From assembly GCA_964645775.1 (NCBI GenBank), contig CAZYBU010000008.1, positions 2,957-66,956 on the forward strand: a stretch of 64,000 nt of DNA, in the 5' to 3' direction. Below are positions 8,134 to 37,914 of this stretch, one piece after another. The stretch's first letter is position 1. Each line of letters starts with the position of its first letter. A program made the position numbers and the translations under genes. The notes beneath the pieces are model-generated. The model searched no databases and had not been told where the DNA came from. It saw only the letters and a list, made by a program, of their open reading frames with translations. Source of the DNA: an uncultured Leptospirales bacterium. GTDB taxonomy: Bacteria; Spirochaetota; UBA4802; UBA5550.

Positions 8134-8252
8134 TGAATTTCACTTTCCAGAATATTCACATTCTGTTACCATAGAATGGCGAATGACTCTTTCGTCAATA
8201 GTAAAAAACAGTTGCTATTATCATGGGAAATTCGGATATTCAACAAACTGAT

Positions 8253-8266: not shown

Positions 8267-8307
8267 TTTATTACCTGATCTGAAACAGGTTAAATAGGAG
8301 GATTAGC

Positions 8308-10269: not shown

Positions 10270-10280
10270 GGAGAGGCAGG

Positions 10281-11823: not shown

Positions 11824-11835
11824 GGTAAGGCTCCT

Positions 11836-15078: not shown

Positions 15079-15100
15079 CTCTTCCTCCCTTTGAACCGGG

Positions 15101-17804: not shown

Positions 17805-17828
17805 GACGCACCTCCCGGTGAAGATAAT

Positions 17829-17848
17829 CTGGCACAACTTGATTGATT
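17829..17848. promoter_or_regulatory. candidate TetR/FadR-type operator TTGATTGAtttgTCAATCAA
   Basis: Perfect 8-bp inverted repeat with 4-nt spacer, 25 nt upstream of the ligase start. Near-identical half-sites occur at 40321..40338 next to the TetR gene. Confidence 0.45.
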
Positions 17849-17886
17849 TGTCAATCAACATTCGCCAAAAAAGTAATTCTGGCTCA

Positions 17887-23989: not shown

Positions 23990-24398
23990 CTTCTCCCCGC
24001 TGGTTCTTGATCATGTTCTTTGAAACAATGATGCCCCGTTTCCCGTCCTTCTCTTCCATGGCGGTAATCTCCACCTGGCAGTGGATGGTGTCCCCGATAA
24101 ATACCGGGTTTAAGAACCTGACCGAGTCCATGCCGTAGAAGGCGATGAAGGACTCCGGAAGGGATACGTACTGGCCCAGCCGGAAGATCAGGGCGCTACC
24201 CACGCTCAGGGTAAGCATCCCGTGGGCGATACGCTGGCCGAAGGGTGACATCTTCGCGGTCTCCACGTCGGTATGGATCGGGTGCCAGTCACCCGTAAGG
24301 CCGGCAAAGGTGTGAATATCACTCTCCGTTATGGTGCGGGCCGGAGAGACCAGCACCTCTCCCACGGTATAGTCTTCGTAGTATTCCCTGTCCTGCAT
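23940..24398 (-). CDS. MaoC-like (R)-specific enoyl-CoA hydratase / hot-dog dehydratase
   Basis: ESDIHTFAGLTGDWHPIHTD hot-dog motif. 152 aa. Confidence 0.8.
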   Translation of the reverse strand: MQDREYYEDYTVGEVLVSPARTITESDIHTFAGLTGDWHPIHTDVETAKMSPFGQRIAHGMLTLSVGSALIFRLGQYVSLPESFIAFYGMDSVRFLNPVFIGDTIHCQVEITAMEEKDGKRGIIVSKNMIKNQRGEDVCVYVTRALCGRRPV

Positions 24399-24407
24399 GA
24401 TTCCCTC

Positions 24408-26216
24408 CTACATCCACTCTTCCCGGATCTGCACAGCCGAAAGGTCTTCCAATTCAAAAGATTTACGTCTCGCGTATAGATTGGGTAGAAAATTCCTGGC
24501 GAAGAAGTTCGCGGTCTCCACCTTGCCCCTGTAGAAGCAATAGTCAGGATGGTCTTCAGGCAGATCCTTCGACTTCTCCAGGGCGATAAGGGCCTGTTCC
24601 AGCAGAAGATGGGCCACAGCCACTTCACCGCAGCACTCCAGGAACCTGGTTGAAGTCAGGGGAATGAGGTCCTGCTTTTCGCTGCCAAAGAGGGTGCCGT
24701 ACTTCTCTACCATGGCCTCAAGATTATCGATTCCATCGGCGAGGACAGAGCAGCTGTCCGTTACATCGTCGACCCGGCAGGCCCTGTCTATGAATCCCCG
24801 CATCTCATCAATCCATGCCCGGTAAGCCCGCCCCTCCTTCATCTTCAGTTTGCGTCCCACCAGGTCGATGGACTGGATAAAGGTGGTTCCGTCCCAGAGG
24901 GAGAGTATCTTGCAGTCCCGGGCGTACTGTTCAATGGGGTACTCCGATGTATACCCGTACCCTCCCAGTATCTCGATACCCATGGAGGTCACGTCCCATA
25001 TGCGGAGGGAACAGTATCCCTTTATTATGGGCGTAAAGAAGTCCAGGCTCTCCTGTGCAAGCCGGGCCTCCTCTTCTTCTTCACTGCCGTGGGCGATATC
25101 CTCGAAGAAGTATCCCCTGTAGGTCAGAACCCTCATCCCCTCGGCCAGGGACTTGATGGACATGAGAAGCCTCCGAACTTCGGGATGCTCGATGATCCGG
25201 ACCCGGCCGTCGCCCTTTTTTCCAAAGCGGGTTCCCTGGACCCGTTCCTTCGCGTACTCCAGGGCGTTGGCGTAGATGTTCTGGGCGAAGGCAGTACTCT
25301 CCAGGCCCACGGCCATGCGGGCCACGTTAACCATCTGGAACATGTAGGCCAGGCCCATCCCCTCCTCCCCGATGAGATGACCGTAGCAGGCATCATTATC
25401 ACCGTAGCTCATCTGGCAGGTGGCCGACCCGTGGAGCCCCATCTTGTGTTCTATGCCCACGCAGGTCACGTCATTGGGCTCACCCATGCTTCCGTCCTCA
25501 TTGACCCATATCTTCGGCACGGCAAAAAGGGAAACTCCCTTGGCCCCGTCCGGGGCCCCTTCCACCCGGGCCAGGACCATGTGTACGATGTTCTCTGTCA
25601 GGTCATGGTCCCCGGAGGTGATGAAAATCTTGGAACCGGTTACACGATAGCAGTCTCCATCCTTTACAGCTTTCGCGCCGATCATGTGCGCGTCGGAACC
25701 GACATCCGGTTCAGTCAGGGCCATGGTCCCTCCCCAGGTACCGTCGTAAAGCTTCTCGCAGAAGAGTCCCTTCTGTTTTTCATTACCAAAATTCTCAATC
25801 AGGGCGCCCTGCCCGGGTCCCATGCCGGAATAGGTACCAAAGGTGAAATTTGCGCTCATGAAAAATTCCGTGGCCGCCTCCGCTATGACAAGGGGGAGTC
25901 CCTGGCCGCCATAGTCCGGGCTCTGGGTCAGGGCAAACCAGCTTCCTTCCCTGAAGAGATCCCAGAGAGGGTGAAAGCACTTCGGGGCGTATACCTTTCC
26001 GTTTTCAAAACGCGCAGGGTCCTCCCGGTCCGTGTCCTGGAAGGTGGGGGCGATCCGGTTCAGGGCGATCTTCTCTGCCTGTTCCAGGATCATCTCGAAG
26101 TCTTCCATGGAGAAGAGGGTGTACTTCTCAAAGGAGAGGAGTTTCTCCACCTGGAGGTGCTCGTTCAGCACGAAGTGGACGTCCCGGCTGTCCCTTTTGT
26201 AATAATTATTTCCCAT
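24408..26216 (-). CDS. acyl-CoA dehydrogenase, long form
   Basis: 602 aa. Paralogous to 21189..23057 (same architecture). Confidence 0.85.
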   Translation of the reverse strand: MGNNYYKRDSRDVHFVLNEHLQVEKLLSFEKYTLFSMEDFEMILEQAEKIALNRIAPTFQDTDREDPARFENGKVYAPKCFHPLWDLFREGSWFALTQSPDYGGQGLPLVIAEAATEFFMSANFTFGTYSGMGPGQGALIENFGNEKQKGLFCEKLYDGTWGGTMALTEPDVGSDAHMIGAKAVKDGDCYRVTGSKIFITSGDHDLTENIVHMVLARVEGAPDGAKGVSLFAVPKIWVNEDGSMGEPNDVTCVGIEHKMGLHGSATCQMSYGDNDACYGHLIGEEGMGLAYMFQMVNVARMAVGLESTAFAQNIYANALEYAKERVQGTRFGKKGDGRVRIIEHPEVRRLLMSIKSLAEGMRVLTYRGYFFEDIAHGSEEEEEARLAQESLDFFTPIIKGYCSLRIWDVTSMGIEILGGYGYTSEYPIEQYARDCKILSLWDGTTFIQSIDLVGRKLKMKEGRAYRAWIDEMRGFIDRACRVDDVTDSCSVLADGIDNLEAMVEKYGTLFGSEKQDLIPLTSTRFLECCGEVAVAHLLLEQALIALEKSKDLPEDHPDYCFYRGKVETANFFARNFLPNLYARRKSFELEDLSAVQIREEWM

Positions 26217-26706
26217 GGGACTTCTCCCCGTCGATGATGGTAAAGTGTGTGATATCCTGGATATTTCCCTGCATCTCTTCAGGCTTCCGGAAAACGGCCC
26301 GTACCCTCATGCCGACTTTTATCCTGTCCACGTTCACCTCGTCGATGATATGGGAGAATATACTGTCCGCACCGTCCATGCGGATATACCCGTAGGTGTA
26401 GGGTATGGGCCGCTGGAGTCCTGTGGCCGGGTCGAGAAAGGGATAGTTCACCACGGAAAAGGCGGTAATGGTTCCCTCGTCCGATAAGGGGACAAGTTCA
26501 TCGCATTCCGTGAAGCAGGGACCGCAGACCCGCCTGGGCGGCACGTAGACCTTCTTGCAGGATGGACATCGTATTCCCAGGAGACGCCCCCTCTCCCTTA
26601 TCTCTTTAAAGAACAGGGTGCCCGGCTTACCCACGGACCACTCGTAGGGCATGGGTGTCGCAAAGGACACGGTAAGCAGATCTTCATATAGTCGTTCGTT
26701 GCTCAT
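26206..26706 (-). CDS. DUF35 Zn-ribbon/OB-fold protein
   Basis: CPSCKKVYVPPRRVCGPC zinc ribbon plus OB-fold. Confidence 0.8.
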   Translation of the reverse strand: MSNERLYEDLLTVSFATPMPYEWSVGKPGTLFFKEIRERGRLLGIRCPSCKKVYVPPRRVCGPCFTECDELVPLSDEGTITAFSVVNYPFLDPATGLQRPIPYTYGYIRMDGADSIFSHIIDEVNVDRIKVGMRVRAVFRKPEEMQGNIQDITHFTIIDGEKSHGK

Positions 26707-26720
26707 CCTCTCCTCCCCTC

Positions 26721-27890
26721 TTACAGTTCGTTACTCAGGATCATGACATCGGACCAGAAGCACCCGCCGAAACCGGTGGCCAGGGCGTTCTTCACTTCCG
26801 GCACCTGGCGTTTGTCACCCTTTCCCATGACCTGGATGGCCGCCTCGGCCACGCGCAGGATGGCTGTTGCCCCAATACAATTGGTACTGATCACCCCTCC
26901 CGAGGGATTGACGGGAATCTTTCCGCCCATGTGGGTATTTCCCTCCCGGACGAACTTCGCTCCCTCTCCGGGACCACAGAACTGCAAATCCTCGATCCAC
27001 TTGAGCCCGGCCCAGGTATAGGGCAGGTAGAGCTCGGCGACGTCCAGTTCCTCAGCCGGCTTCGTTATGCCCGCCTGTTTGTAGGCGTCCCTGGAAGCCC
27101 GCTGGAGGGAGACCAGTCCCTCGGTATAGTTGGTCGAGTCCCCGAACCAGGTATAGGTATGTCGAACGGCCGTTCCCCTGACCCAGGCCGGTTTGGAGGT
27201 CATCTTCCTGGCCACATCTTCGGCCGCGAAGATCACAGCCCCGGCCCCGTCCGTGCGGGGACAGATGTCACCCAGTTTAATAGGGTAGGCCAGCATGGGA
27301 GATTCCATGATCTCCGCAACACTCAGGGGTTTCTGGAGGTGGGCAAAGGGATTGTTCAGGGCATTGGCCCGGTCCCTTTCGGCGATGAGAGCCGCGTTCT
27401 CCTGTGTGGCCCCGTACTGTTCCATGTAGGCCGTGGCCTCCGTGGCCAGGCTCGGTATGGCACCCGAGTAGGAGAACCGGTCCCAGATGGGATCGCTGCA
27501 GGTTATGATTGCGGCCGTGGTATCGCTCTCGGAGTTCTTCTCCCATCCTATGGCCAGGACCCGGTCGAAAAGACCGCTGGCCACGTGGTAGTATGCGGCG
27601 ATGGCCACGGAAGCTCCCGTGGTACCGCCCGTGGAGACCTTCATGATCGGTTTCATGACTCCGCCGGTCCCCTCTACGCTCCAGGTATCCACGTAATTTA
27701 TGGATTCAAAGTGGTCCATGTTACCGATAACTATCGCGTCGATATCGGCGATTGTGATTTCACAGTCCTCCAGGGCCCGGGTTACGGCTTCGTTAATCAT
27801 CTCCCTCTGGTTAACATCGGGCCTGTGACTTTTATGGTAGGTCTGTCCTGTTCCGACTATGGCTACGTTTCGTCCCATGCTTAACCTCAC
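26721..27890 (-). CDS. thiolase-fold protein, Cys-less 'type A' (SCP-x/Ltp2-like)
   Basis: Thiolase fold. Nucleophile position reads STGGTTGAS (no Cys). C-terminal STNCIGATA (Asn in place of His). Start overlaps the stop of the type B partner (27887). Confidence 0.75.
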   Translation of the reverse strand: MRLSMGRNVAIVGTGQTYHKSHRPDVNQREMINEAVTRALEDCEITIADIDAIVIGNMDHFESINYVDTWSVEGTGGVMKPIMKVSTGGTTGASVAIAAYYHVASGLFDRVLAIGWEKNSESDTTAAIITCSDPIWDRFSYSGAIPSLATEATAYMEQYGATQENAALIAERDRANALNNPFAHLQKPLSVAEIMESPMLAYPIKLGDICPRTDGAGAVIFAAEDVARKMTSKPAWVRGTAVRHTYTWFGDSTNYTEGLVSLQRASRDAYKQAGITKPAEELDVAELYLPYTWAGLKWIEDLQFCGPGEGAKFVREGNTHMGGKIPVNPSGGVISTNCIGATAILRVAEAAIQVMGKGDKRQVPEVKNALATGFGGCFWSDVMILSNEL

Positions 27891-29029
27891 ACAACGCTAC
27901 TCAGGACCCAGAGGCAGTGACTCTGCCCGCAGGGACCGTTGATTCCCTGGGCCACGGCTGTCCTGGCTCCCTCTACCTGCCGTTTACCCGCGTCTCCCCG
28001 AACCTGGAGGGCTGCTTCGATAACACGGGCCAGGCCCGCAACCAGGGCAGCGTGAGATGAAAGGACGCCTCCCGAAGGATTCACGGGAAGGTCCCCTCCG
28101 GCCAGGGTCAGACCCTGTTCCAGGAGGGTCATACCCTCGCCCGGACCGCAGAATCCCATCCCCTCCAGCCAGAGTGGTTCCATGTAGGTAAAGGCGTCAT
28201 AGAGTTCCACCACGTCGACCTCTTCCAGGCGGTTGTTGATTCCGGCCATGGCAAAGGCCCTGTCCGCGGCCTGGCGCAGGGCCCGGGGTGTCTCCAGTTC
28301 ACGATCACCGATCATGTACTCGTCGGCGCAGTGTGCGATCCCCCTGATCCAGGCCGGTTTACTCTTAGCCTTTTCCACTATCTCCCGGTTGCCAATGATA
28401 ACAGCGGCCGCGCCGTCACTTACCGGGCTGCAGTCCAGCTTCTTCAGGGGTTCCGCCATTTTTCTGGAATTCATCACGTCATCCACGGAGATATCCATGG
28501 GAAGGTGGGCCAGGGGATTCTTCCGTCCGTTTCCGTGGTTCTTCACGGATATACGGGCCAGGGACTCCTCAGATACACCGAAGGTATCCATGTACCTGCG
28601 GGCCTGTAGGGCCGAGGAGCTGACGGATTCCAGTCCCAGGTGACGCTGAAAGACCGGGTCGAACATCCCGTTCGTCACATACCGGATGTCCCCCTCGCTT
28701 CCCTTGCAATGAGCCACGACAAGGGATGTCCTGTTTCCACCCAGGACCCTCATGGCTCCGTAGAAGGCGCCGAAGGCACCGTCCCCTTCCACCGTGGAGA
28801 TGTTCTTGTCCTGCCCACCGGAAGCGTCTCCCACGGCCATGCCGGAGATGGTACGGCCGTCAAAGAAGTCGTTGGAGACCGTGACCACGCTGTCGATATC
28901 ATCAATGGTAAGCCCCGCGTCATCCAGGGCCATGCGTGTCACGTCGAAAACAAGGTCCGCGTAGATCTCATCTTTCTTCCGTTTCTCGTAATTTGTCTGT
29001 CCGGTCCCGACTATTGCTATATCATCCAT
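27887..29029 (-). CDS. thiolase-fold protein, Cys-less 'type B'
   Basis: Thiolase fold. Nucleophile segment STVEGDGAF (no Cys). C-terminal SGGVLSSHAALVAG retains His. Confidence 0.75.
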   Translation of the reverse strand: MDDIAIVGTGQTNYEKRKKDEIYADLVFDVTRMALDDAGLTIDDIDSVVTVSNDFFDGRTISGMAVGDASGGQDKNISTVEGDGAFGAFYGAMRVLGGNRTSLVVAHCKGSEGDIRYVTNGMFDPVFQRHLGLESVSSSALQARRYMDTFGVSEESLARISVKNHGNGRKNPLAHLPMDISVDDVMNSRKMAEPLKKLDCSPVSDGAAAVIIGNREIVEKAKSKPAWIRGIAHCADEYMIGDRELETPRALRQAADRAFAMAGINNRLEEVDVVELYDAFTYMEPLWLEGMGFCGPGEGMTLLEQGLTLAGGDLPVNPSGGVLSSHAALVAGLARVIEAALQVRGDAGKRQVEGARTAVAQGINGPCGQSHCLWVLSSVV

Positions 29030-29030
29030 G

Positions 29031-29495
29031 TCAGCTCTCCCCTATCACTTCAAAGCATTCTATGTCCAGGATATGCCCCTTTCTCTCTTCACGGAACCTG
29101 GCCCGGACCCGGGTTCCCCGTTTCAGGGAATCGAGACCATCCTGCACCAGGTGGGCCAGAGAGACGTTACTCCCCTCAAGGCGGACCAGAACATAGGCGA
29201 AGGGTGGATCAAAGGGTTGAAGCACAAAGGGATAATGCACTATGGTAAAGGATTCAACAACGCCTTCGGTGGAGAGCTCCACCCAGTCCTCCATGGGCAC
29301 GAAACAGGTGCCGCAGTTCTTCCTGGGCGGGACATAGGTCCGGCCGCATTTGGCGCACGTGTTGCCCAGGATTTTTTTCTCGTCACGGATCCCCCGAAGA
29401 AACCGGCTGCCGGTCTCCCCGACCCACCATGTATAGGGCACCGCGATCTGTCCCTTCAGGGTCATTCCTTCCACATCCTTTAACCAGTCCGCCAT
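29031..29495 (-). CDS. DUF35 Zn-ribbon/OB-fold protein
   Basis: CAKCGRTYVPPRKNCGTC zinc ribbon plus OB-fold. Confidence 0.8.
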   Translation of the reverse strand: MADWLKDVEGMTLKGQIAVPYTWWVGETGSRFLRGIRDEKKILGNTCAKCGRTYVPPRKNCGTCFVPMEDWVELSTEGVVESFTIVHYPFVLQPFDPPFAYVLVRLEGSNVSLAHLVQDGLDSLKRGTRVRARFREERKGHILDIECFEVIGES

Positions 29496-29524
29496 ATCTC
29501 TCTCCTTTTCAGATGCTCAGCTTT

Positions 29525-30754
29525 TCAGACCGTGAGCATAAGCGCTTCGCCCTGGGAGAGACCTCCGCATATTGCGGCCACGCCTCTTCCTCCGCCCCTG
29601 CGCATAAGCTCGTACATCAGGGTCATGGTTATACGTGCGCCGCTGGCGCCCACCGGATGGCCGATGGCAATGGCGCCGCCGTTCACGTTTGTCTTCTCCT
29701 TGAGGAGATCCATCTTCTTCCGGTCTCTGCCCGCCAGTTCCTTGAGGGAGACCAGGGTAACGGCCGCGAAGGCCTCATTTATCTCGATAAGGTCGATATC
29801 ATCGATAGTTGAACCGGCCCGGGAAAGCATCTTATCAATGGCCTGGGCCGGAACGCAGGCCATGTACTTGGGGGAACCGGCCGCGGCCTGGGTATAGTCA
29901 ACCCTGGCCAGGGGCTCCAATCCCTTCTCCTCAGCCTTCTTCCGCGACATGAGAACGATGGCCGAGGCCCCGGAGTTCATGCCCGGAGCGTTGCCGGCCG
30001 TTACTGTTGGGCTTCCGTACACAGGTTTAAGGCGGGCCAGCTTCTCCATGCTGGAGTCTTCCCTGGGCGACTCGTCCCGGTCCATGACAACAGGGTCACC
30101 CTTTCTCCGGGGTGCCTCACAGGTCATCATCTCCTCGCCTACCTTGAACTTCCCGGCTTCAAATGCCTGGAACCATCTCCGGTGGCTTCCCATGGCCCAC
30201 TCGTCCTGTTCCTCGCGGGAGACATCGTACTCAACGGCCACTTCCCCCGCGTCCGTTGCCACGGGAGCGAATCCCCGGCGTCCGTAACCCAGTTCAAAGA
30301 GGACATCCTCCAGAGGCATGTGTCCCAGACGGGACCCCCACCTTGCCTTCTCAGCCGGGGCAATAAGGGCAGCGTTACCCATGTTCTCCGCGCCGGAAGC
30401 GATAACTATCTCCGCGTTCCCGGAACGGATCGACTGGTACCCCAGGCGCATTGCCGTCATGGATGAACAGCAGGCCCGGTCAAGGGTAAGGGAGATGTTA
30501 TCATCAGGAAAACCGGCGCCAAGGGTTATCTGCCGCGCCGGCACGTTAGTGTAGAGGGAGTACTCGGCCGGGATACAGGTCCCGTAGTAGACCTCGTCCA
30601 CCTCGCTCTTATCCAGGTTTATGCGTTCGGTCACTTCCTTCAGAGTTGCGATACTGAGATCAAAGCTCAGAACATTCTTTAATACTCCGTCAAACTTCCC
30701 GAAAGGGGTCCGAACCGCGCTTACGATAACAACATCATCAGGGTTTGTGCTCAT
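29525..30754 (-). CDS. acetyl-CoA C-acyltransferase (thiolase II, catalytically complete)
   Basis: Nucleophile Cys (RACCSSMTAM), GHPVGASG and CGGLSQG C-terminal motifs. Confidence 0.85.
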   Translation of the reverse strand: MSTNPDDVVIVSAVRTPFGKFDGVLKNVLSFDLSIATLKEVTERINLDKSEVDEVYYGTCIPAEYSLYTNVPARQITLGAGFPDDNISLTLDRACCSSMTAMRLGYQSIRSGNAEIVIASGAENMGNAALIAPAEKARWGSRLGHMPLEDVLFELGYGRRGFAPVATDAGEVAVEYDVSREEQDEWAMGSHRRWFQAFEAGKFKVGEEMMTCEAPRRKGDPVVMDRDESPREDSSMEKLARLKPVYGSPTVTAGNAPGMNSGASAIVLMSRKKAEEKGLEPLARVDYTQAAAGSPKYMACVPAQAIDKMLSRAGSTIDDIDLIEINEAFAAVTLVSLKELAGRDRKKMDLLKEKTNVNGGAIAIGHPVGASGARITMTLMYELMRRGGGRGVAAICGGLSQGEALMLTV

Positions 30755-30784
30755 ATCATTATTCCTTGTTCGATTTTCCGGTTT

Positions 30785-32302
30785 CTATCGGAAACCGTAG
30801 TCCTTATCCAGGATATCTCCGGCACACAATATCCCTGAAACAATGGCACAGTCCATGGCCACACCGTATCCCCGGGCCGTGTCTCCCGCGAAGAACAGTC
30901 CCTCAACGTGCCTCGAACGTACCGGGAGTTTCTGTGTGCCGGCCTGGGAGATGCTCTTGGCCACGCCTTCCAGCTTCCAGCATACCAGGTCCAGTTTCCA
31001 GTCCACGCTCTCGTTAAAACCGGGGTAAATCTCCTCCATGAAATGGGGGAGTCGATCCACGATCTTACGGACTAAACTCTTATCCAGAGCCTCCTTCTCG
31101 GTAAGGGGGAGATAGGCGGTGTAGAGATATTTCCCTTCCGGGGCCACGGTCGGATCAATGGCGGACTGGATATTCCAGCAGATGTAGACATCGGAATCAA
31201 AGCCTTCTTCTTTGGGAAGGACACAGGTATTCTTGATTCCCATGCGCGCCTCCTCTTCCGGCATAACCAGTTTATTGAGCCCCATGTAGGGAACGTAACT
31301 TCCGTACCCGTACATCGATTCAGTCTTTTTCACCCAATCTTCCGGAAAGAGGGATGGATCGATCATCTTGAAGGTAAGCTGGCCCGGCACGTTGCTGACC
31401 ACCCGGCCTGTGCCGATGGTTTTATCTCCTTCGGGCGTCTCGACCCGGACACCGGTGACCTTCGCATCTTCAACCTCGATCTGCCGCACCTTCGCGTTCA
31501 GCATCAGCTCGCCGCCGAAGGACTCGAACTTGCGGGCCACAGCTTCGGACCATTTCATGGTACCGCCTTCCACGAAGCCTCCCACGTGCCGCAGAACTCC
31601 CTTCGAGAGCTTGGGCTGGAAGGCGTGCTTGAAGTACCGGAAGATATCTCCCATGGAGATGTCTTCCGGGTTATTAATCGTGGAGAAGAGGGTTGCCACC
31701 GTGTGAAGGTGATTATAGATGATTTCGTTTTTTGTTATTCCTTTCTTCTCCGCCCAGTCCCGGAAAGAGACCCCTTCCAATCCGTCGATCTCCTCGTCGG
31801 ACATGGTGTAGGCATCGGAGTAGAAATCGAGGTAGGGTATGCCCTCCTCTTTGGCCATGATCTTCAGCTTCGGGTCGATATTGCTGCCGGCCACGTCCCG
31901 GTAGATCTCGCCCTTGTACCAGGAGGCATAATCGGAACCGTACCGGTTCACATCCTCTATGCCGCCGATCAGTTCCTCGAAGTCCATCATGTATCCTGCA
32001 CCATTGGCGCTCAGAGCGTGGTACCCGATGTCGAGTGTGTAGCCGCGGAGCATGCCGGAGGATACCAGTACCTCTGCCGGGGGCGTGGAGTTGGCAATAT
32101 AGGTGTACTGGCTCTTTAGGATGTTCCTGTACCAGTCCAGGCCCTTATCGGTTATATCATCACCGCTTACGGACAGGGCCCGTCCCCCTACCCGGTCGTT
32201 CTGTTCAACGAGGAGTACCTTTTGCCCCTCCTTTGCCAGAAGAGTGGCCACGGAAAGCCCTCCCACACCGGCACCGATAACTATCGTGTCGTAACTCTTC
32301 AC
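30785..32302 (-). CDS. FAD-dependent oxidoreductase, phytoene desaturase (CrtI) family
   Basis: N-terminal GAGVGGL...EQNDRVGGRA dinucleotide-binding motif. 505 aa with CrtI-like length and architecture. Confidence 0.8.
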   Translation of the reverse strand: MKSYDTIVIGAGVGGLSVATLLAKEGQKVLLVEQNDRVGGRALSVSGDDITDKGLDWYRNILKSQYTYIANSTPPAEVLVSSGMLRGYTLDIGYHALSANGAGYMMDFEELIGGIEDVNRYGSDYASWYKGEIYRDVAGSNIDPKLKIMAKEEGIPYLDFYSDAYTMSDEEIDGLEGVSFRDWAEKKGITKNEIIYNHLHTVATLFSTINNPEDISMGDIFRYFKHAFQPKLSKGVLRHVGGFVEGGTMKWSEAVARKFESFGGELMLNAKVRQIEVEDAKVTGVRVETPEGDKTIGTGRVVSNVPGQLTFKMIDPSLFPEDWVKKTESMYGYGSYVPYMGLNKLVMPEEEARMGIKNTCVLPKEEGFDSDVYICWNIQSAIDPTVAPEGKYLYTAYLPLTEKEALDKSLVRKIVDRLPHFMEEIYPGFNESVDWKLDLVCWKLEGVAKSISQAGTQKLPVRSRHVEGLFFAGDTARGYGVAMDCAIVSGILCAGDILDKDYGFR

Positions 32303-32326
32303 CGTCTTCTTCCTCCTCTTCGATTC

Positions 32327-33352
32327 TTAGAGAATGACGTATTCATGCAGCATTTCTCCCGTTACCCGGTCTTCTTCTCCATCTATCACCAGATCGAGGG
32401 TATAGTCCGCCAGGAAGCGGTAATAGTACATGTCCCATTCCGCCCGTTTCGGCAGGGTCATCTGTTCTACCACCCTGTGAGTCCTGATATCGAGTTTCAT
32501 AGTAACTCCCAGGGTATCGGTGCTGCAAACCAGGCGGTTCGGGTACTCCTGACCCAGACTCTCGTCCTTTACCATGTCATGGAAGTCGATCTCCATCCTG
32601 TCCGTGGAGAGCTCGATCTTCCCGTCCCGGGCTATTAAAAGGGGCGCGCCCGTGGGAGCGTCCTCTTCCCGGGGCAGGACCCATCCCCAGTCGATGGTGT
32701 ATCTCTCGTTATGAATACGGCCCCAGTACCAGCCGCGGTATGTTTTGTAAACATGGTAGTTGCCCCAGTTATGGTCATGGTAGCCGAATCCCTTCACCGG
32801 TATGGTCTCTCCCTTGACATAGAGTTCACCCTCCACGTCTGCCGCGGGCATGGGAACCACCCATCCGGCCACCATGCCACTTTCCTCGTCCTTGTAATTG
32901 AACCCGGTACCCGGCTTCCAGGGAGACACGGTGTTTCGAAAGACCAGGTCAAAGCCGTTACCGTTTATGTCCATAACCACCCGGTAATGGTCTCCCGTGT
33001 CCCGGACGTAGCTTTTATTCATGCGGACATCGCACCAGTTGGGGTTCGCGGAGATGGACTTCGCGTCACAGATCTCGTAGCGGTCCACCCGGGTCCCGTC
33101 AGGCCTGTATACGAAGAACTGGAGCGACGGGATCATGGGATTGAGGAACATGTTCCGGTAATGGTACGTGATGACCAGGTGATAGCCGTTGGTAAAGCCG
33201 GCGTCAAAGTACCACCACTCGTAATACTCCTCGACGTTCTCCTCGTACTTGTGGGAGGCGTCATCCCTCCGGACAAAACCGGTCGGTTTTCTCTCGGCTC
33301 CCCGTTCGCCCTCGAAGTAGGCCAGGTAATTTTTCTTTGACCGTTCATCCAT
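32327..33352 (-). CDS. CrtC/AttH-like lipocalin-fold putative hydratase (tentative)
   Basis: EWWYFDAGF and HDHNWG segments resemble hydroxyneurosporene-synthase/AttH family signatures. Family assignment from memory only. Confidence 0.45.
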   Translation of the reverse strand: MDERSKKNYLAYFEGERGAERKPTGFVRRDDASHKYEENVEEYYEWWYFDAGFTNGYHLVITYHYRNMFLNPMIPSLQFFVYRPDGTRVDRYEICDAKSISANPNWCDVRMNKSYVRDTGDHYRVVMDINGNGFDLVFRNTVSPWKPGTGFNYKDEESGMVAGWVVPMPAADVEGELYVKGETIPVKGFGYHDHNWGNYHVYKTYRGWYWGRIHNERYTIDWGWVLPREEDAPTGAPLLIARDGKIELSTDRMEIDFHDMVKDESLGQEYPNRLVCSTDTLGVTMKLDIRTHRVVEQMTLPKRAEWDMYYYRFLADYTLDLVIDGEEDRVTGEMLHEYVIL

Positions 33353-33362
33353 TTCTCCTCCC

Positions 33363-33818
33363 TCACTCCGGCCGGAAATGCTTTATATCCAGGATATTGC
33401 CCTGACGGTCCTCCTCGAAAACAGCACGGACCCTCATCCCGATCTTCATCTGGCTGTAATCCACCTCGTCCACGAAATGGGTGATACCGGTATCCGCGCC
33501 ATCCAGCTTGACAACCGCGTAGATGAAGGGCGCTTTTCTGGGTATGTGAGGCTCGTCGTAATGGACCCGGGTGAAGGTCTCCACTGTTCCTCCGGGACCC
33601 ACCTCGATCATATCATCCAGGGACATGGTGGTGTAAGTCTCCTGGCAGGTCTCCCTGGGGGGCCAGTAGACCTTTCCTTTATTGTTTTTCGTAGCCAGGA
33701 TCTTCTTCTCGTCCCGCAACGCCCTGAAAAAAGCAGAACCGACAATCCCGGCATAGTAGTTACACTTTACCTTGATCCGCTGATCATATTCCATGGGAGG
33801 ATAGTAGCTTTCGTTCAT
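33363..33818 (-). CDS. DUF35-like OB-fold protein with degenerate zinc ribbon
   Basis: OB-fold region aligns with neighbouring DUF35 proteins (VETFTRVHY...GMRVRAVFE). Only two Cys where the ribbon should be (KVKCNYY, RETCQE). Confidence 0.55.
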   Translation of the reverse strand: MNESYYPPMEYDQRIKVKCNYYAGIVGSAFFRALRDEKKILATKNNKGKVYWPPRETCQETYTTMSLDDMIEVGPGGTVETFTRVHYDEPHIPRKAPFIYAVVKLDGADTGITHFVDEVDYSQMKIGMRVRAVFEEDRQGNILDIKHFRPE

Positions 33819-33821
33819 GGC

Positions 33822-34340
33822 TCACTCCTTATCCTTGTTCGGTTTTTCCTGGCCGGGAAGGGGATCAAAGTACCTGATGTCGGAAAGGTCCCCTTTTCTC
33901 ATGTCATCGGGATGAAAAACCGGTCTTACCCTCATGCCGACCCATAGCTTGTTGAACTCCGGTTCCATGTTCAGAAAATGATCAATGGAACTGTCGCATC
34001 CGTCCAGATGCACCGTGCAGTAAACAAAGGGGGGCTCATGGGGCTCTCCCGTTGTAGGGTCAGTCAGGGGAATGTACATGATCTGGTACGCACTGACCGA
34101 ACCTTCCGGGCCCACTTCCACCCATCCTTCATTTTGGACGTGACAGGTTGCGCAGACCACCCTGGGTGGAAGCTGTACACGCCCGCATTTTGGACAGCGG
34201 ATGGCAAAGAACCGCTTGTTCTCCTTGAGCTCGTACAGGAATTTTCCCATGTTCGGCCCCGCCGCGAAACGGTAGGGGACATCAACGATCAGGGGTATAT
34301 GAATAAGATCCTCTTCATGGATGTTCTCTTCAGATGCCAT
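33822..34340 (-). CDS. DUF35 Zn-ribbon/OB-fold protein
   Basis: CPKCGRVQLPPRVVCATC ribbon. Start moved to ATG 34340 (MASEENIHEE) with GAGGAGG SD. Lies 11 nt after the upstream gene's stop. Confidence 0.75.
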   Translation of the reverse strand: MASEENIHEEDLIHIPLIVDVPYRFAAGPNMGKFLYELKENKRFFAIRCPKCGRVQLPPRVVCATCHVQNEGWVEVGPEGSVSAYQIMYIPLTDPTTGEPHEPPFVYCTVHLDGCDSSIDHFLNMEPEFNKLWVGMRVRPVFHPDDMRKGDLSDIRYFDPLPGQEKPNKDKE

Positions 34341-34350
34341 TTCCGCCTCC

Positions 34351-35541
34351 TCAGTCCTTTGTTCCGTCCGAAAGTGCCGTAAGGGCCGTCCAGCAGGTTC
34401 CGCCGTAGGCCGTGGCCAGGGCCCTGTGTACTTCACCCGGGACCTGGTGATCACCCGCCTCACCCCGAATCTGGAGAACACACTCCCAGATACGGCACAG
34501 GGCCGTGGCACCGATGGCGTTGGTGCAGAGGACCCCACCCGAGGGATTAACCGGTATCTCTCCATCGATCTCGGTCATACCCTTTTCTATGAGCTTCCAG
34601 CCGTCTCCTCTTTCGCAGAGATGCAGGTCCTCGTACCAGACCAGTTCAGCCCAGGTGGCCGGCTCGTAGACCTCGAATACATCAAAATACTCTGCCGGTT
34701 TCTTGACTCCCAGCTTCTTGTAAATCCTTTCCGCAGAGACCTCGGAGAAACGGGGCTTGTCCGAATACATGTCCCTCCAGTTCAGCTCGAACTGTTCGTT
34801 ATGGGAGGTATCCATGGCCCGAATCCAGACCGGTTTTTTTGGTCCTTTTTTCGCCTTCTCTTTTGACTGCACGATAACGGCGCAGGCACCGTTGGAAGCA
34901 GGACACATGTCCAGGAGGCGTATGGGCCAGGCCAGCATGCGCGAGTTCAGGGCGTCCTGTATCCCGATATCGAGCTGGAGGTGGGAGAATTCATTCTTTC
35001 TCCCGTTCTGGCGGGACTTGACAGAGACCATGGCCGAGTGTTCCTCCGTGGCGCCGTACTTCGACATGTAGGTGGAACCCTGCTGGGCAAAGAAACCGAG
35101 CGCGGCACCTGCCGTTGAGCGTCCATAAAGGGGATGAGCGACCCCGCTCAGGATGGCGTTGGTGTCTCCTTCCTCCTGTTTTTCGAATCCGATAACCAGG
35201 ACCGTGTCATAAAGTCCGCTGGCCACAAAATGGGCCCCGGCATGGACCACGGTAGCCCCCACGGTTCCCCCGGTGGTAATCTTCACGCCCGGTTTGCCGT
35301 AATTACCCACGCCGCTGGCCATCCAGCAGTCCGTCATGTAGGTCCCTTCGAAGAATTCCATGTTCCCCTGGACAACGGCGTCCACCTGGTCCATGGTCAA
35401 TTCCGCGTCTTCCAGCGCGGCCCGGACGGCCTCGTTGACCATTTCTATCTGGTTAACGTCATGACGGCGGGCCGCGAACTTTGTCTGTCCTCCGCCGACG
35501 ATGGCAACCTGTCGTTTCATTGAAGCCTCCTTACTTACCAC
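34351..35541 (-). CDS. thiolase-fold protein, Cys-less 'type A'
   Basis: TTGGTVGAT at nucleophile position. C-terminal CTNAIGATA. Paralogous to 26721..27890. Confidence 0.75.
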   Translation of the reverse strand: MVSKEASMKRQVAIVGGGQTKFAARRHDVNQIEMVNEAVRAALEDAELTMDQVDAVVQGNMEFFEGTYMTDCWMASGVGNYGKPGVKITTGGTVGATVVHAGAHFVASGLYDTVLVIGFEKQEEGDTNAILSGVAHPLYGRSTAGAALGFFAQQGSTYMSKYGATEEHSAMVSVKSRQNGRKNEFSHLQLDIGIQDALNSRMLAWPIRLLDMCPASNGACAVIVQSKEKAKKGPKKPVWIRAMDTSHNEQFELNWRDMYSDKPRFSEVSAERIYKKLGVKKPAEYFDVFEVYEPATWAELVWYEDLHLCERGDGWKLIEKGMTEIDGEIPVNPSGGVLCTNAIGATALCRIWECVLQIRGEAGDHQVPGEVHRALATAYGGTCWTALTALSDGTKD

Positions 35542-36679
35542 TCAGTACGATGACGCAGTGATGCTGACCGCAAAACCCGCTGTGTCCCTGGGCCACGGCA
35601 GTCTTCACCCCATCCACCTGGTGCTCACCCGCACGACCGGCCACCTGTCTCCAGGCCTCGGCCACGCAGTTCAGACCCATTACATTGTGGGGGACCCCGG
35701 AGAGAACTCCCCCGGAGGGGTTAACCGGTATCCGGCCATTCAGCATGGTCTCCCCGGAATCGATGAGCTTACCGCCTTCACCGTTTCCACACAGGCCGAG
35801 ACCCTCTGTCCACATCAGCTCCTGGTAAGCGAACTCCTCGTCAACCTCGGCCACGTCTATCTCCCTGGAGGGGTACTGAATACCGGCCATTCCATAGGCC
35901 TGTTTCGCAGCATCCTCCAGGGAAGGAGTACGAGCCAGATCACGGTCTCCCGGATAGTATGCGTCGTAGCTCGTTCCGATACCGGTTACCCAGACCGGGT
36001 TCTTCGTTACCTTTTTCGCTTTCTTCTCTGATGCAAGAATCATGGCGACGGCGCCGTCCGTGTCCGGGGCCATCATCATTTCATGAATTGGTTCAGCCAC
36101 CATGGGAGACTCCAGCACATCCCGGATGGAGTAGTTCCCAAAATTATGTGCATAGGGGTTCCTGGCCCCGTTTGCCAGGTTTTTCTCCACAACCCGGGCC
36201 ACCTGTTCATCAGTTACTCCGAAGTCATGCTGGTACCGTCTCTGCTGCATGGCCGCAGCAGAGGTCCAGTCCAGACCGAGCATTCGGCTGAACAGAGGTT
36301 CCATTCCGTTGTTGCTCACCACGTTTCTCCGGGTGGCTGACATCTTGGTGTGGGCCATGATAAGGGTACAGTCGAACTCCCCGGAGAGTATCCCTATGGT
36401 TCCGTAAAATACGGCGGTGGAACCGTCCATGGCCATCTTCTCCTCGGTGCGAAGGTGCCCACCGATGACATCGGTGATCCCGATATTCGATATGGTCTGG
36501 CCGTCCCATATATCATGGGAACAGCTAATGCTGTTATCGATATCCTTCTCCATCTCCAGACCGGTCTCCTCAAAGACCTGCCGGATAACTTCCCAGCCCA
36601 GTTCCGAGTACTGGGCATCAACCCTCTTTGGGCTGAACCGGGTCTGGGCCACTGCCAGTATAGCTACCCTGTCGGACAT
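35531..36679 (-). CDS. thiolase-fold protein, Cys-less 'type B'
   Basis: DGSTAVFYG at nucleophile position. C-terminal GVPHNVMG. Paralogous to 27887..29029. Its stop overlaps the type A start. Confidence 0.75.
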   Translation of the reverse strand: MSDRVAILAVAQTRFSPKRVDAQYSELGWEVIRQVFEETGLEMEKDIDNSISCSHDIWDGQTISNIGITDVIGGHLRTEEKMAMDGSTAVFYGTIGILSGEFDCTLIMAHTKMSATRRNVVSNNGMEPLFSRMLGLDWTSAAAMQQRRYQHDFGVTDEQVARVVEKNLANGARNPYAHNFGNYSIRDVLESPMVAEPIHEMMMAPDTDGAVAMILASEKKAKKVTKNPVWVTGIGTSYDAYYPGDRDLARTPSLEDAAKQAYGMAGIQYPSREIDVAEVDEEFAYQELMWTEGLGLCGNGEGGKLIDSGETMLNGRIPVNPSGGVLSGVPHNVMGLNCVAEAWRQVAGRAGEHQVDGVKTAVAQGHSGFCGQHHCVIVLSGK

Positions 36680-36688
36680 ATCTTCCCC

Positions 36689-37873
36689 CTATACCCGTTC
36701 AAATATGGTTGCTATTCCCTGGCCACCGCCGATGCAGAGGGTGGCCAGTCCGTATTTACCGCCTGTCCTGTGAAGCTCGTTAATCACGGCAATGGCCAAT
36801 CTTCCGCCCGACATGCCGTTGGGATGTCCGAAAGCTATGGCGCCACCGTGAGGGTTCCACCTCTCAGGGATGACTTTATGACCATTTTTCTCAAGAATCT
36901 TCATCACAGCCAGTGTCTGGGACGCGAAGGCCTCGTTGCACTCCACCACGTCCATCTCTTCAAGGGAGAGTCCGGCCACTTTCAGGGCCTTTTCGCATGC
37001 GTCGACAGGGGCTATACCCATGTACCGGGGCTCCCGTGCGGAAACGGCAGAAGCCACAAACCGGGCCTTAGGAGTAACCTTGAGCTCATCCGCCTTCTCC
37101 TTTGACATCATGAGAACGGCCACTCCGCCGTCATTCATGCCGGAGGAGCTGCCTGCCGTTACGGTTCCATCTTTCTTAAAGGCCGGTTTCAGTTTGGAAA
37201 GTTTTTCCAGGGTCGTCTCTCTGGGGTGCTCGTCCGTATCAAAGATAACGGGGTCCCCCTTTCGTTGAGGAATTTCCACGGGAACAATCTCGTCCCTGAA
37301 CAGCCCCCCATCGATTGCTTCTTTGGCCAGCTGCTGGCTGCGGAGGCCGAACTTGTCCTGCTCTTCCCGGCTGATCTGGAACTCCTCTGCCAGGATCTCT
37401 GCAATAATCCCCATGGGGACATTGGTCTGGTCATCGGGACCGGTCTGCCGGGTGATCCAGGCCGGGGGCGCCAGGGAGAAAGGTGCCTCCTGGCGTTCCA
37501 TCATGTAAGGCTGGCGGCTCCAGGACTCGCATCCGGCGGAGACATAGACATCACCGAATCCGGCCATAATATTGGCCGCCGCGCTGTTAATGGTCTGCAG
37601 GGAGGAACCGCACTGCCTCTCGATGGTTTGGGAGGGAACTGAAATGGGGTATCCTGCCGCCAGCGTTGCCCACCGGCCGATGTTCACGGCAGCGTTATTG
37701 GTGCAGGCGTGGCCCACCAGGATATCGTCCACCAGGGCCGGGTCTATGGTCATCCGTTCCCGCAGGCCCTTAAGCGCGAAGGCGGCCAGCTCCTCGGGCC
37801 GAAAGGTGGATAGGCTTCCCCCCATCCTGCCTATGGCCGTTCTGACTCCGTCTATATACATCACTTCTTTCAT
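36689..37873 (-). CDS. acetyl-CoA C-acyltransferase (thiolase II, catalytically complete)
   Basis: RQCGSSLQ nucleophile, FGHPNGMSG and LCIGGGQG C-terminal motifs. Confidence 0.85.
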   Translation of the reverse strand: MKEVMYIDGVRTAIGRMGGSLSTFRPEELAAFALKGLRERMTIDPALVDDILVGHACTNNAAVNIGRWATLAAGYPISVPSQTIERQCGSSLQTINSAAANIMAGFGDVYVSAGCESWSRQPYMMERQEAPFSLAPPAWITRQTGPDDQTNVPMGIIAEILAEEFQISREEQDKFGLRSQQLAKEAIDGGLFRDEIVPVEIPQRKGDPVIFDTDEHPRETTLEKLSKLKPAFKKDGTVTAGSSSGMNDGGVAVLMMSKEKADELKVTPKARFVASAVSAREPRYMGIAPVDACEKALKVAGLSLEEMDVVECNEAFASQTLAVMKILEKNGHKVIPERWNPHGGAIAFGHPNGMSGGRLAIAVINELHRTGGKYGLATLCIGGGQGIATIFERV

Positions 37874-37898: not shown

Positions 37899-37914
37899 AC
37901 CGATAACTATCGGC
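37899..37914. promoter_or_regulatory. 16-bp palindrome ACCGATAACTATCGG(c) in crotonase-thiolase intercistronic gap
   Basis: Inverted 7-bp arms ACCGATA/TATCGG. Overlaps the crotonase stop codon. Ends 25 nt upstream of the thiolase start. Member of a dispersed family (see findings). Confidence 0.4.

Follow-up and report, generated by a model that had tools for sequence, protein, structure and literature searches.

An operon of anaerobes with two Cys-less thiolase-fold/DUF35 modules related to Ltp3/Ltp4: candidate retro-aldol lyases for branched acyl-CoAs

We analyzed a 64,000-nucleotide stretch of DNA (here, the window) from an uncultured Leptospirales bacterium (GenBank assembly GCA_964645775.1, contig CAZYBU010000008.1, positions 2,957 to 66,956 of the forward strand), which contains a fatty-acid-type operon with two modules of thiolase-fold and DUF35 genes. 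Besides a complete thiolase, each module encodes two SCP2-type thiolase-fold proteins without the nucleophilic Cys (one of type A and one of type B) and two DUF35 proteins; judged by sequence relationship, these last four genes are the equivalents in anaerobes of ltp3, ltp4, and the double-DUF35 gene of actinobacteria. An earlier interpretation of the same DNA (the sequence-only reading) had proposed retro-aldol cleavage of beta-branched or otherwise blocked acyl-coenzyme A (acyl-CoA) intermediates. On the basis of homology and gene context, this is still the best-supported reading: the modules may be four-subunit retro-aldol lyases that debranch beta-substituted acyl-CoAs (probability of roughly 0.55). 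The weaker claim, that A and B form a nonthiolytic heteromer capped by DUF35 proteins, is very likely correct.

RESULTS AND DISCUSSION

Two paralogous modules in one operon

All module genes are on the minus strand, with intergenic gaps of 1 to 30 nucleotides (nt), and belong to a codirectional operon of ~29 kb that runs from a TetR gene (39658 to 40278; first gene) to position 11233 (last gene). Pfam domains bore out the parts list given for both modules in the sequence-only reading. Module 1 consists of Thl1 (36689 to 37873), a complete classical thiolase with Thiolase_N and Thiolase_C domains; B1 (35531 to 36679), of the Ltp4-like type; A1 (34351 to 35520; 389 amino acids [aa]), of the Ltp3-like type; D1a (33822 to 34340), a DUF35 protein with a Cys4 zinc ribbon (zf-ChsH2 and OB_ChsH2_C); and D1b (33363 to 33818), a DUF35 protein with the OB domain (OB_ChsH2_C) only. 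Module 2 consists of Thl2 (29525 to 30754), a second complete classical thiolase (Thiolase_N and Thiolase_C); D2a (29031 to 29495) and D2b (26206 to 26706), which are both DUF35 proteins with Cys4 zinc ribbons according to Pfam; B2 (27887 to 29029), Ltp4-like; and A2 (26721 to 27878; 385 aa), Ltp3-like. The A and B proteins all carry the SCP2-type Thiolase_C_1 domain and a weak Thiolase_N match. The B stop codon had been thought to overlap the A start codon in each module, which proved wrong: A2 starts at the ATG at 27878 and A1 at the ATG at 35520, leaving B-to-A spacers of 8 to 10 nt. These assignments agree with the NCBI gene call and with homologue lengths of 386 and 389 aa, and each start follows a GAGG/GGAGG Shine-Dalgarno site.

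The two modules are paralogous, as the earlier description of a tandem duplication implies, but the duplication is ancient (44 to 45% identity for A1/A2 and 41% for B1/B2, compared with 32 to 36% for A/B), widely conserved, and not special to this genome. A recent tandem duplication was ruled out, as the paralogues are 32 to 45% identical whereas each module's own orthologues in other phyla are 60 to 85% identical. The thiolases Thl1 and Thl2 retain the CxS nucleophile, NEAF, GHP, and the C-terminal Cys-Gly loop (CIGGG in Thl1), i.e., the nucleophilic Cys, the His, and the acid/base Cys of a true thiolase, and both pass the TIGR01930 cutoff (430 bits for Thl1). The nucleophile is absent from A1, A2, B1, B2, and a fifth thiolase-fold protein of the operon, Thl3.

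Loss of the thiolase nucleophile and conservation of the remaining sites

Scanning one genome per species led to the identification of 466 A2 relatives, of which the best 80 were fetched as loci; conservation was measured on the homologues extracted from these loci (80 for A2, 72 for B2, 22 for A1, and 19 for B1). In HMMER alignments with an archaeal thiolase (6esq), BbsB (7pxp), and zebrafish SCP2-thiolase (6hsj), A2 Gly89 occupies the position of the nucleophilic Cys, Y288-L-P-Y is aligned with the HDCF/HDAF loop, and Asn337 is aligned with the GHP His. In B2, the position of the nucleophilic Cys falls inside a three-residue deletion and the GHP His (His326) is retained; B1 likewise shows the three-residue deletion and an Asp at the nucleophile loop. 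These alignments, together with the homologues, support the earlier observation that all four A/B proteins lack a Cys at the nucleophile position, and the Cys-less states are maintained across all four sets of homologues. A search for a displaced nucleophile revealed none: the conserved Cys residues of A (C210 in a DxCPxSDG strand and C377 near the C terminus) and of B (C367 and C372) lie outside the nucleophile loop. C210 of A is aligned with a Ser of Pyrococcus 7yvy, and the conserved Cys residues of A and B may serve as an acid. Lacking an acyl-accepting Cys, A and B would be unable to carry out thiolysis.

The loops that remain are strongly conserved. Residues T87-G-G-T-T-G92, E286, Y288, P290, N337, and I339-G-A-T are identical in all 80 A2 homologues, and the 22 A1 homologues display an A2-like pattern (TTGGTVG, E-V-Y-E-P, and a conserved Asn341), so that the Asn previously noted in place of the C-terminal His of type A holds for both families. 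An exhaustive search of representatives gave the same picture on a wider scale, with the ~35 nearest 50%-identity clusters all showing xTGG(T/A/S)xG, E-x-Y, and N-P-IGA, and with B-type sequences and real thiolases (CASG, HDCF, and GHP) appearing at lower scores only. In the 72 B2 homologues, G82-D83-G84, Y90-G91, Q369, and C372 are invariant, and C367 and H371 are conserved in 96% and 97%, respectively.

Known thiolase-fold aldolases have a Gly instead of the nucleophilic Cys, with the Gly backbone in contact with the hydroxyl of the substrate; the catalytic base is the Tyr of YDHF (Tyr294 in Ltp2) or YDCY (Tyr302 in Sal), and the catalytic acid is Tyr344 in Ltp2 and Cys304 in Sal (PMC12329534). 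The same Gly is present in A2 (Gly89, invariant in the 80 homologues), and the Tyr at the first position of the YDHF/YDCY loop is found in 80 of 80 A2 proteins (Tyr288) and 21 of 22 A1 proteins (Tyr292); B1 has no Tyr at the equivalent position. The active-site loops show invariance instead of decay, which makes a catalytic role likely. The sequence patterns suggest that A has a functional, though differently equipped, lyase site and that B has a conserved, possibly auxiliary, site.

The invariant Thr-Thr right after the Cys position in A and the invariant Asp in the equivalent loop of B could also be taken to indicate true thiolases or acyltransferases with a non-Cys nucleophile (Thr90 or Thr91 of A, or Asp83 of B). 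We consider this very improbable, since A also lacks the activating His residues, having Tyr and Asn in their places, and we know of no precedent for a non-Cys nucleophile among SCP2-type thiolases. Moreover, the Gly substitution of A is shared by Sal and Ltp2, and these are aldolases (PMC12329534).

Relationship to Ltp3 and Ltp4

None of the four A/B proteins reached the cutoff of an NCBIfam family. The best model for type A was PRK08313 (373 bits for A1 and 365 bits for A2; cutoff of 514), which is thus the closest named family, without A1 and A2 being members. Against PRK07937 ("lipid-transfer protein"; cutoff of 419), B1 and B2 scored 179 and 178 bits, respectively, and the A proteins scored 97 to 114 bits. 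With the BbsB model NF053628 (cutoff of 750), the window proteins scored 115 to 146 bits and, lacking the Cys, are not members. Searching plasmid records by tblastn, we came upon a Tsukamurella record with cholesterol-cluster genes (echA19-like, fadD19-like, F420 oxidoreductase, P450, and "steroid 3-ketoacyl-CoA thiolase" genes), which contains a string of genes for a 309-aa OB-fold protein and two thiolase-domain proteins of 359 and 390 aa. The 390-aa protein scores 734 bits with PRK08313 and the 359-aa protein scores 593 bits with PRK07937, which makes each a full member of its family, and the 309-aa protein has two DUF35 OB domains (i.e., a fused double DUF35). From their gene context, the 390-aa and 359-aa proteins, and hence PRK08313 and PRK07937, correspond to Ltp3 and Ltp4, respectively. 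Going by the Mycobacterium tuberculosis gene order, they would be the counterparts of Rv3523 and Rv3522, respectively.

A1 and A2 matched Ltp3-like proteins with 248 to 275 bits and 38 to 40% identity (249 to 275 bits for A1), and the best partners of Ltp4 in the comparison panel were B1 and B2 (120 to 129 bits), compared with 50 to 85 bits for the A proteins. Best hits were reciprocal within the panel (A with Ltp3 and B with Ltp4). Among solved structures, the scores reached at most 143 bits with A2 and 159 bits with B2, and Ltp2 (6ok1) gave 97 and 92 bits, respectively. The Ltp2/ChsH2 system, to which the modules had first been compared, is a Cys-less thiolase-fold aldolase with a DUF35 partner, but it is more distant (97 bits) than Ltp3/Ltp4 (~250 bits). 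The modules share with ltp3/ltp4 the adjacent A-type and B-type Cys-less genes and the two DUF35 domains. The architecture is therefore not new in itself, as it equals ltp3/ltp4 plus the double DUF35, but the earlier description of it as possibly uncharacterized suits the version found in anaerobes. No steroid-specific genes (echA19, fadD19, cyp125, fadA5, etc.) occur in the window operon, and a comparison with the Bbs and steroid pathways revealed no gene-for-gene match for the operon.

According to PMC6678751 and PMC6593523, degradation of sterol side chains branched at C24 requires ltp3 and ltp4, and Ltp3-Ltp4 is described as a heteromeric aldol-lyase that cleaves the C24-C25 bond after C28 carboxylation and hydration. 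All of these statements go back to a single genetic study (Wilbrink et al. 2012, as cited by PMC6678751 and PMC6593523).

An aerobe variant of the A/B system is carried by Rhodococcus qingshengii plasmid pLP1 (locus L082; 38 to 47 kb). This igr-like operon encodes two acyl-CoA dehydrogenases (ACADs), a split MaoC, a truncated 304-aa B-like protein, an A/Ltp3-like protein, a single DUF35 protein, a CaiB-type CoA-transferase, a short-chain dehydrogenase/reductase (SDR), and a ligase.

Four-gene cassette conserved across anaerobic phyla

Hundreds of A2 homologues share 75 to 86% identity with the window protein, and nearly all of them are metagenomic; A2 itself is 100% identical to a sequence on contig CAXDPQ010000017.1 of the metagenome-assembled genome (MAG) GCA_963991465.1. 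The hosts of the best 80 of the 466 relatives include Syntrophales (including Smithella), Desulfobacterales, Desulfomonile, Desulfatibacillum, Spirochaetota (Leptospirales MAGs), Anaerolineae, Syntrophomonadaceae and other Bacillota, Poribacteria, and Abyssobacteria. Module 2 is also present in cultured strains, i.e., Desulfomonile tiedjei DSM 6799, Desulfatibacillum alkenivorans DSM 16219, and D. aliphaticivorans.

Every window protein was mapped onto the 80 loci. D2b comes after A2 in 78 of 78 loci, B2 comes before A2 in 67 of 71, and B2 itself has a DUF35 gene ahead of it in 64 of 70; the conserved unit is thus a four-gene cassette, DUF35-B-A-DUF35. Among the 32 loci with full flanks, 11 have module 1 within 10 kb, and 13 have a gene for the beta-keto acid cleavage enzyme (BKACE) near the cassette. 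Other MAGs reproduce, one gene after another, the complete order TetR, 3-hydroxyacyl-CoA dehydrogenase (HCDH), enoyl-CoA hydratase (ECH), Thl1-B1-A1-D1a-D1b (with a CrtC-like protein and a flavoprotein being optional), module 2, ACAD-MaoC-SpoIIE-like, and ligase, and the TetR gene takes the same position at loci L035, L037, L049, and L087. As many unrelated genomes have the cassette and share the two-module order, neither is due to chance; the operon with two modules has spread horizontally and turns up repeatedly, so it is not peculiar to this genome.

These counts also bear on the possibility that A, B, and the DUF35 proteins are noncatalytic scaffolds or pseudoenzymes, which would channel intermediates for the neighboring true thiolase, and perhaps for a hydratase, in the way that archaeal DUF35 does. 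The gene immediately upstream of the cassette encodes a complete thiolase in 35 of 64 loci, conservation of the B1 loops is poor, and the top TM-score of the A2 model (0.90) is to the archaeal thiolase of a DUF35 complex, 6esq, all of which would fit such a role. However, 45% of the cassettes have no adjacent thiolase gene, and the A loops (TGGTxG, ExYxP, and N), which are shared with Ltp3, are 100% invariant in 80 homologues, which would be unexpected of a dead site. To our knowledge, classical FadA-type thiolases are not partners of DUF35 proteins, and we regard a pure scaffold as unlikely.

AlphaFold2 models of A2 (pLDDT of 83) and B2 (pLDDT of 71.5) had the expected fold, and the structural search confirmed the fold class. 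Foldseek matched the A2 model at TM-scores of 0.81 to 0.90 to SCP2-type thiolase folds partnered by DUF35 (6esq/6et9, 7pxp, 6ok1, 5m3k, 9myr, 9vbo, and the Cys-less ST0096, 4yzo).

The usual company of the cassette consists of AMP-forming ligases, ACADs, MaoC or crotonase hydratases, HCDH, and BKACE. Clustering of locus open reading frames (ORFs) without a window counterpart identified further recurrent neighbors, including SpoIIE-like proteins (22 loci), a 468-aa Amino_oxidase subfamily (19 loci), Liv-type ABC transporters (7 loci), aldehyde:ferredoxin oxidoreductases (AORs; 6 loci), and Fe-alcohol dehydrogenases (Fe-ADHs; 5 loci). The AOR and Fe-ADH genes flank the cassette in Anaerolineae and further loci. 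The 468-aa Amino_oxidase subfamily, which follows the cassette (e.g., in Desulfomonile tiedjei and Desulfatibacillum alkenivorans), differs from the CrtI-like protein of the window. The pair of CrtC/AttH-like and CrtI-like genes that lies between the modules here is found in ~10 other loci. In all five Bacillota/Syntrophomonadaceae loci (L061, L069, L070, L076, and L078), biotin carboxylase and carboxyltransferase genes follow the cassette, in the order ACAD, ligase, MaoC, D, B, A, D, ACAD, biotin carboxylase, carboxyltransferase, ECH, BKACE-like, and ligase. These five loci have a Liu/Atu-like layout without a 3-hydroxy-3-methylglutaryl-CoA (HMG-CoA) lyase. The Liu/Atu routes for leucine and acyclic terpenes use this gene set, with the lyase cleaving 3-hydroxy-3-alkylglutaryl-CoA.

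DUF35 subunits

The four DUF35 genes form four orthologue groups, with 50 to 73% identity across loci and 33 to 39% identity between groups, which is the pattern expected of four distinct subunits in one complex. All four zinc-ribbon Cys residues of D1a are 100% conserved. D1b of the window lacks three of the four (KNNK-G and CQET), and CxxC...CxxC is present in 95% of its orthologues (n = 19). In the fused actinobacterial double DUF35, the N-terminal half is likewise Cys free; comparison of D1a, D1b, D2a, and D2b with the N- and C-terminal halves of this fused protein revealed no clear orthology. In the representative search, a 731-aa protein (P0451) was found in which an A-like thiolase-fold domain is fused to two DUF35 domains, a fusion that is consistent with one thiolase-like subunit and two DUF35 modules acting together. 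No A-B fusion was present among 150 representatives, the long matches being thiolase-like proteins with two DUF35 domains or with SCP2 domains.

Proposed retro-aldol cleavage of branched acyl-CoAs

Each module, with one A, one B, and two distinct DUF35 proteins, probably assembles as DUF35-B-A-DUF35, like the solved alpha-beta-beta-alpha complexes Sal-Shy(DUF35) and Ltp2-ChsH2(DUF35). Such a complex would catalyze the retro-aldol cleavage of a 3-hydroxyacyl-CoA that cannot be oxidized to the 3-oxo form because its beta-carbon bears an extra substituent (i.e., a tertiary alcohol), and the products would be acetyl- or propionyl-CoA and a carbonyl compound. A would be the likely catalytic subunit, in which the Gly leaves room for the hydroxyl-bearing carbon, the invariant Tyr of E-x-Y-x-P acts as the base, as Tyr294 does in Ltp2 and Tyr302 does in Sal, and the invariant Asn stands in place of the GHP His. 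B may be a partner that shapes or completes the site through its invariant Asp and its CGQxHC loop.

In the pathway that we propose, an AMP-forming ligase would activate a long-chain branched acid, possibly isoprenoid derived, after which ACADs and MaoC or crotonase hydratases would give the 3-hydroxy intermediate, optionally with prior gamma-carboxylation of the branch by a carboxylase encoded elsewhere. The lyase would then take the block away. With carboxylation, a 3-hydroxy-3-alkylglutaryl-CoA would be cleaved by a lyase that stabilizes the thioester enolate, giving acetyl-CoA and a free 3-oxoacid; the operon encodes BKACE and a 3-oxoacid CoA-transferase, which use free 3-oxoacids. Either of these might reactivate the 3-oxoacid without ATP before the adjacent true thiolase shortens it, and the unblocked chain would pass through further cycles by means of ECH, HCDH, and thiolase. 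Without carboxylation, the product would be a methyl ketone. An unbranched secondary alcohol would give an aldehyde, which would provide a role for AOR and the second ligases, as in the Sal/Sad route. By analogy, the cassette in the Bacillota layout may fill the lyase slot, following the same chemical logic as that proposed for Ltp3/Ltp4; the carboxylase context of these loci matches the Ltp3/Ltp4 scheme of carboxylation, hydration, and aldol cleavage (PMC6678751). The CrtC-like/CrtI-like pair, the ACADs of ~600 aa, and the 620-aa ligase hint at long unsaturated methyl-branched chains, possibly isoprenoid derived, as substrates.

The carboxylase genes beside the cassette in Bacillota are also compatible with a different chemistry, in which the Cys-less proteins would be acyl-CoA decarboxylases acting on malonyl-type or 3-oxo-dicarboxyl-CoA substrates with the enolate-stabilizing half of the thiolase site. 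A Cys-less SCP2-thiolase-like protein of the same fold group, TbSLP, decarboxylates malonyl-CoA very slowly (PMC12329534). The activity of TbSLP is marginal, however, and the same study argues that TbSLP is an aldolase and reports that Sal has no decarboxylase activity (PMC12329534). With the nearest relatives, Ltp3/Ltp4, being assigned aldol cleavage and with ACADs and hydratases in the context predicting a 3-hydroxy substrate, decarboxylation appears rather improbable.

As aldol reactions are reversible, the complex might instead work in the condensing direction, adding acetyl-CoA to a ketone or an aldehyde in the anaerobic activation of methyl ketones or aldehydes or in the building of branched lipids. 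The AOR and Fe-ADH genes that flank the cassette in several loci make aldehydes plausible members of the pathway. Against this, the TetR-controlled operon contains catabolic genes (three ACADs, a ligase, BKACE, and a CoA-transferase) and no biosynthetic genes, and the hosts include syntrophic fatty acid degraders, making the condensing direction quite improbable.

Several observations nevertheless weigh against the retro-aldolase reading. The second catalytic residue of Ltp2/Sal has no obvious counterpart, with the position of Sal Cys304 being Pro in A and Ala in B2; the residue ~50 positions after the Tyr in A, whose equivalence to Ltp2 Tyr344 is judged by spacing, is a nonconserved Cys, Pro, or Ala. 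The B subunits are less constrained than A. Tyr277 is found in 54 of 72 B2 homologues, and the C-terminal (GHP) His of type B, which the sequence-only reading had described as kept, is indeed present in the window proteins but occurs in only 76% of the B2 family (His326) and is not conserved in the B1 family. In the 19 B1 homologues, the Asp and the GxCGQxHC loop (GFCGQHHC in the window) are kept and the remaining loops vary. The fold search does not separate aldolases from thiolases, all SCP2-type folds being matched at TM-scores of 0.81 to 0.90. Ordinary beta-oxidation would be possible without a lyase, as the operon has a normal HCDH and two complete thiolases, and no carboxylase genes are encoded in the 64-kb window. 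Finally, the literature searched contained no biochemical or structural paper on Ltp3/Ltp4 or on the window clade.

A broader and more tentative proposal is that the cassette might be the key enzyme of a widespread, hitherto unrecognized anaerobic route for debranching beta-methyl/isoprenoid-type lipids in syntrophs, sulfate reducers, Spirochaetota, and Anaerolineae. Candidate substrates would be phytol-, archaeal-lipid-, or polyprenol-derived acids and mid-chain methyl fatty acids; the four-subunit thiolase-fold lyase would replace HMG-CoA lyase, BKACE and CoA-transferase would recycle the 3-oxoacid or ketone product without ATP, and the two modules would serve two kinds of blocked cycle.

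Other genes of the operon and its surroundings

The remaining operon genes, all on the minus strand, are as follows. Behind the TetR gene (TetR_N and TetR_C domains) and upstream of Thl1 are genes for HCDH (38720 to 39625; 3HCDH_N and 3HCDH) and a crotonase-type ECH (37907 to 38701; ECH_1). Module 1 (in the order Thl1-B1-A1-D1a-D1b) is followed by a CrtC/AttH-like lipocalin-fold protein (32327 to 33352; weak CrtC and DA_N matches), which is a candidate C=C hydratase and has weak PDB matches to AttH 2ich and 7a0q, and by a CrtI-like flavin adenine dinucleotide (FAD) oxidoreductase of the Amino_oxidase family (30785 to 32302), in which solved structures match the N-terminal FAD motif only. Downstream of module 2 (Thl2-D2a-B2-A2-D2b) are a long ACAD of 602 aa (24408 to 26216; Acyl-CoA_dh_N/M/1 and Acyl-CoA_dh_C), a MaoC-type (R-specific) enoyl-CoA hydratase (23940 to 24398; MaoC_dehydratas), a SpoIIE/PP2C-like protein (23078 to 23989; weak SpoIIE match), a second long ACAD of 622 aa (21189 to 23057), an SDR (20289 to 21098; adh_short), and a standard-size ACAD (19126 to 20280). 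The real start of the SpoIIE/PP2C-like gene is probably later than 23989 (280 aa in the NCBI call). These are followed by a PHP-domain protein (18466 to 19116), a calcineurin-like phosphoesterase (17887 to 18465; Metallophos), the AMP-forming acyl-CoA ligase of 620 aa (15999 to 17861; AMP-binding), BKACE (15101 to 15958; 297 bits with the Pfam BKACE model), and subunits A (14086 to 15183) and B (13304 to 14074) of a 3-oxoacid-type CoA-transferase (CoA_trans), with the start of subunit A probably being later than annotated. The PHP, calcineurin-like, and SpoIIE/PP2C-like phosphoesterase-fold genes (17887 to 19116 and 23078 to 23989) are kept in the operon across several phyla.

After the BKACE and CoA-transferase genes, the operon ends with an additional pair of Cys-less thiolase-like and DUF35-like genes outside both modules (11233 to 13272). 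Thl3 (11836 to 13272; 478 aa) has TGGATGG at the nucleophile loop, HDAF, and a retained His, and barely reaches the cutoff of NCBIfam PRK06365 (697 bits; cutoff of 695). Its partner D3 (11233 to 11823; 196 aa) is an atypical DUF35-like protein with the zf-ChsH2 domain only.

The 3' end of the operon is abutted (7537 to 11168) by a divergent TetR gene, an AOR gene on the plus strand (8308 to 10269; AFOR_N and AFOR_C), and a gene for a metallo-beta-lactamase-fold protein, also on the plus strand (10281 to 11168). Two ORFs of 533 and 653 aa were considered as carboxylase subunits and ruled out, as they encode a methyl-accepting chemotaxis protein and an aldehyde:ferredoxin oxidoreductase, respectively. 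Upstream of the operon's TetR gene, a ~900-bp AT-rich (~40% GC) noncoding gap separates it from a gene for a B12-binding radical S-adenosylmethionine (SAM) protein with DUF4070 (41179 to 43008; minus strand). Promoter and terminator scans at the operon ends gave results no better than those for shuffled sequence. The remainder of the window contains unrelated housekeeping and sugar/sulfatase genes.

Novelty and implications

Thiolase-fold aldolases are so far known from a few steroid-degrading aerobes only. The new elements here are a distant, anaerobe-wide clade of the Ltp3/Ltp4 system; the duplication of this system, which gives two dedicated modules with one thiolase apiece in a conserved operon of ~29 kb; and the association of the system with BKACE, CoA-transferase, and, in Bacillota, carboxylase genes. 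The literature searched contained no description of these features and nothing specific on this gene cluster in anaerobes; a mention of DUF35 in a Desulfotomaculum acetone study proved unrelated. Hundreds of anaerobic species carry the cassette, and conservation of the two-module operon extends across phyla. The lyase assignment, if true, would explain how strict anaerobes pass beta-branched carbons in lipids, touching on the open question of isoprenoid and branched-chain degradation in anoxic sediments and digesters, and would provide new C-C lyases for biocatalysis. The cultured carriers make this hypothesis testable.

Comparison with known systems

The closest known system is Ltp3/Ltp4, with which the modules share two adjacent Cys-less SCP2-type genes in the order B (ltp4) then A (ltp3) plus two DUF35 domains. 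In the joint alignment, A and Ltp3 share T-x-G-x-x-G in place of the Cys, E-x-Y-x-P, and the Asn for the GHP His, and B1 and B2 share with Ltp4 the three-residue deletion and the Asp beside the lost Cys. Differences include the limited identity (38 to 40% for A and 29 to 31% for B, with scores under the family cutoffs), the DUF35 domains being two separate genes that flank the A/B pair in module 2, and the full-length B with its CGQxHC loop, which Ltp4 lacks. In addition, the hosts here are strict anaerobes, there are no steroid genes nearby, and two paralogous modules each have their own thiolase.

Ltp2-ChsH2 (6OK1) and Sal-Shy (9MYR) resemble the modules in the SCP2-thiolase fold (TM-scores of 0.82 to 0.83), the DUF35 partner, the Gly at the Cys position, and the Tyr that comes first in the (H/Y)D(C/H)(F/Y) loop. 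They differ in being homodimers with one DUF35 type, which is fused to a hydratase, and in having a second catalytic residue (Tyr344/Cys304) that is absent from A; A2 scores 97 bits with 6ok1. The benzoylsuccinyl-CoA thiolase BbsAB (7PXP) likewise combines an SCP2-type thiolase-fold subunit with a DUF35 subunit in an anaerobic catabolic operon, but BbsB is a real thiolase, in which the nucleophilic Cys and the His are still present, and the enzyme has a single thiolase-type subunit. In the archaeal thiolase/HMG-CoA synthase complex (6esq), which gave the top TM-score with the A2 model (0.90), DUF35 bridges two different thiolase-superfamily enzymes; both have a catalytic Cys and are biosynthetic, whereas both proteins here are SCP2-type and Cys-less and occur in a catabolic context. 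ST0096 of Sulfolobus tokodaii (4YZO) is the best solved match by sequence and Foldseek E value and has a Cys-less nucleophile loop, but the His residues of its HD(M)A loop and of GHP are both retained, and it was deposited as a single protein type.

The HMG-CoA lyase step of the Liu/Atu routes is an analogue rather than a homologue. The likeness lies in the Bacillota cassette standing among ACAD, biotin carboxylase, carboxyltransferase, and ECH genes. HMG-CoA lyase is a TIM-barrel metalloenzyme, whereas here a thiolase-fold heteromer would fill the lyase slot, in the case of the window without a carboxylase.

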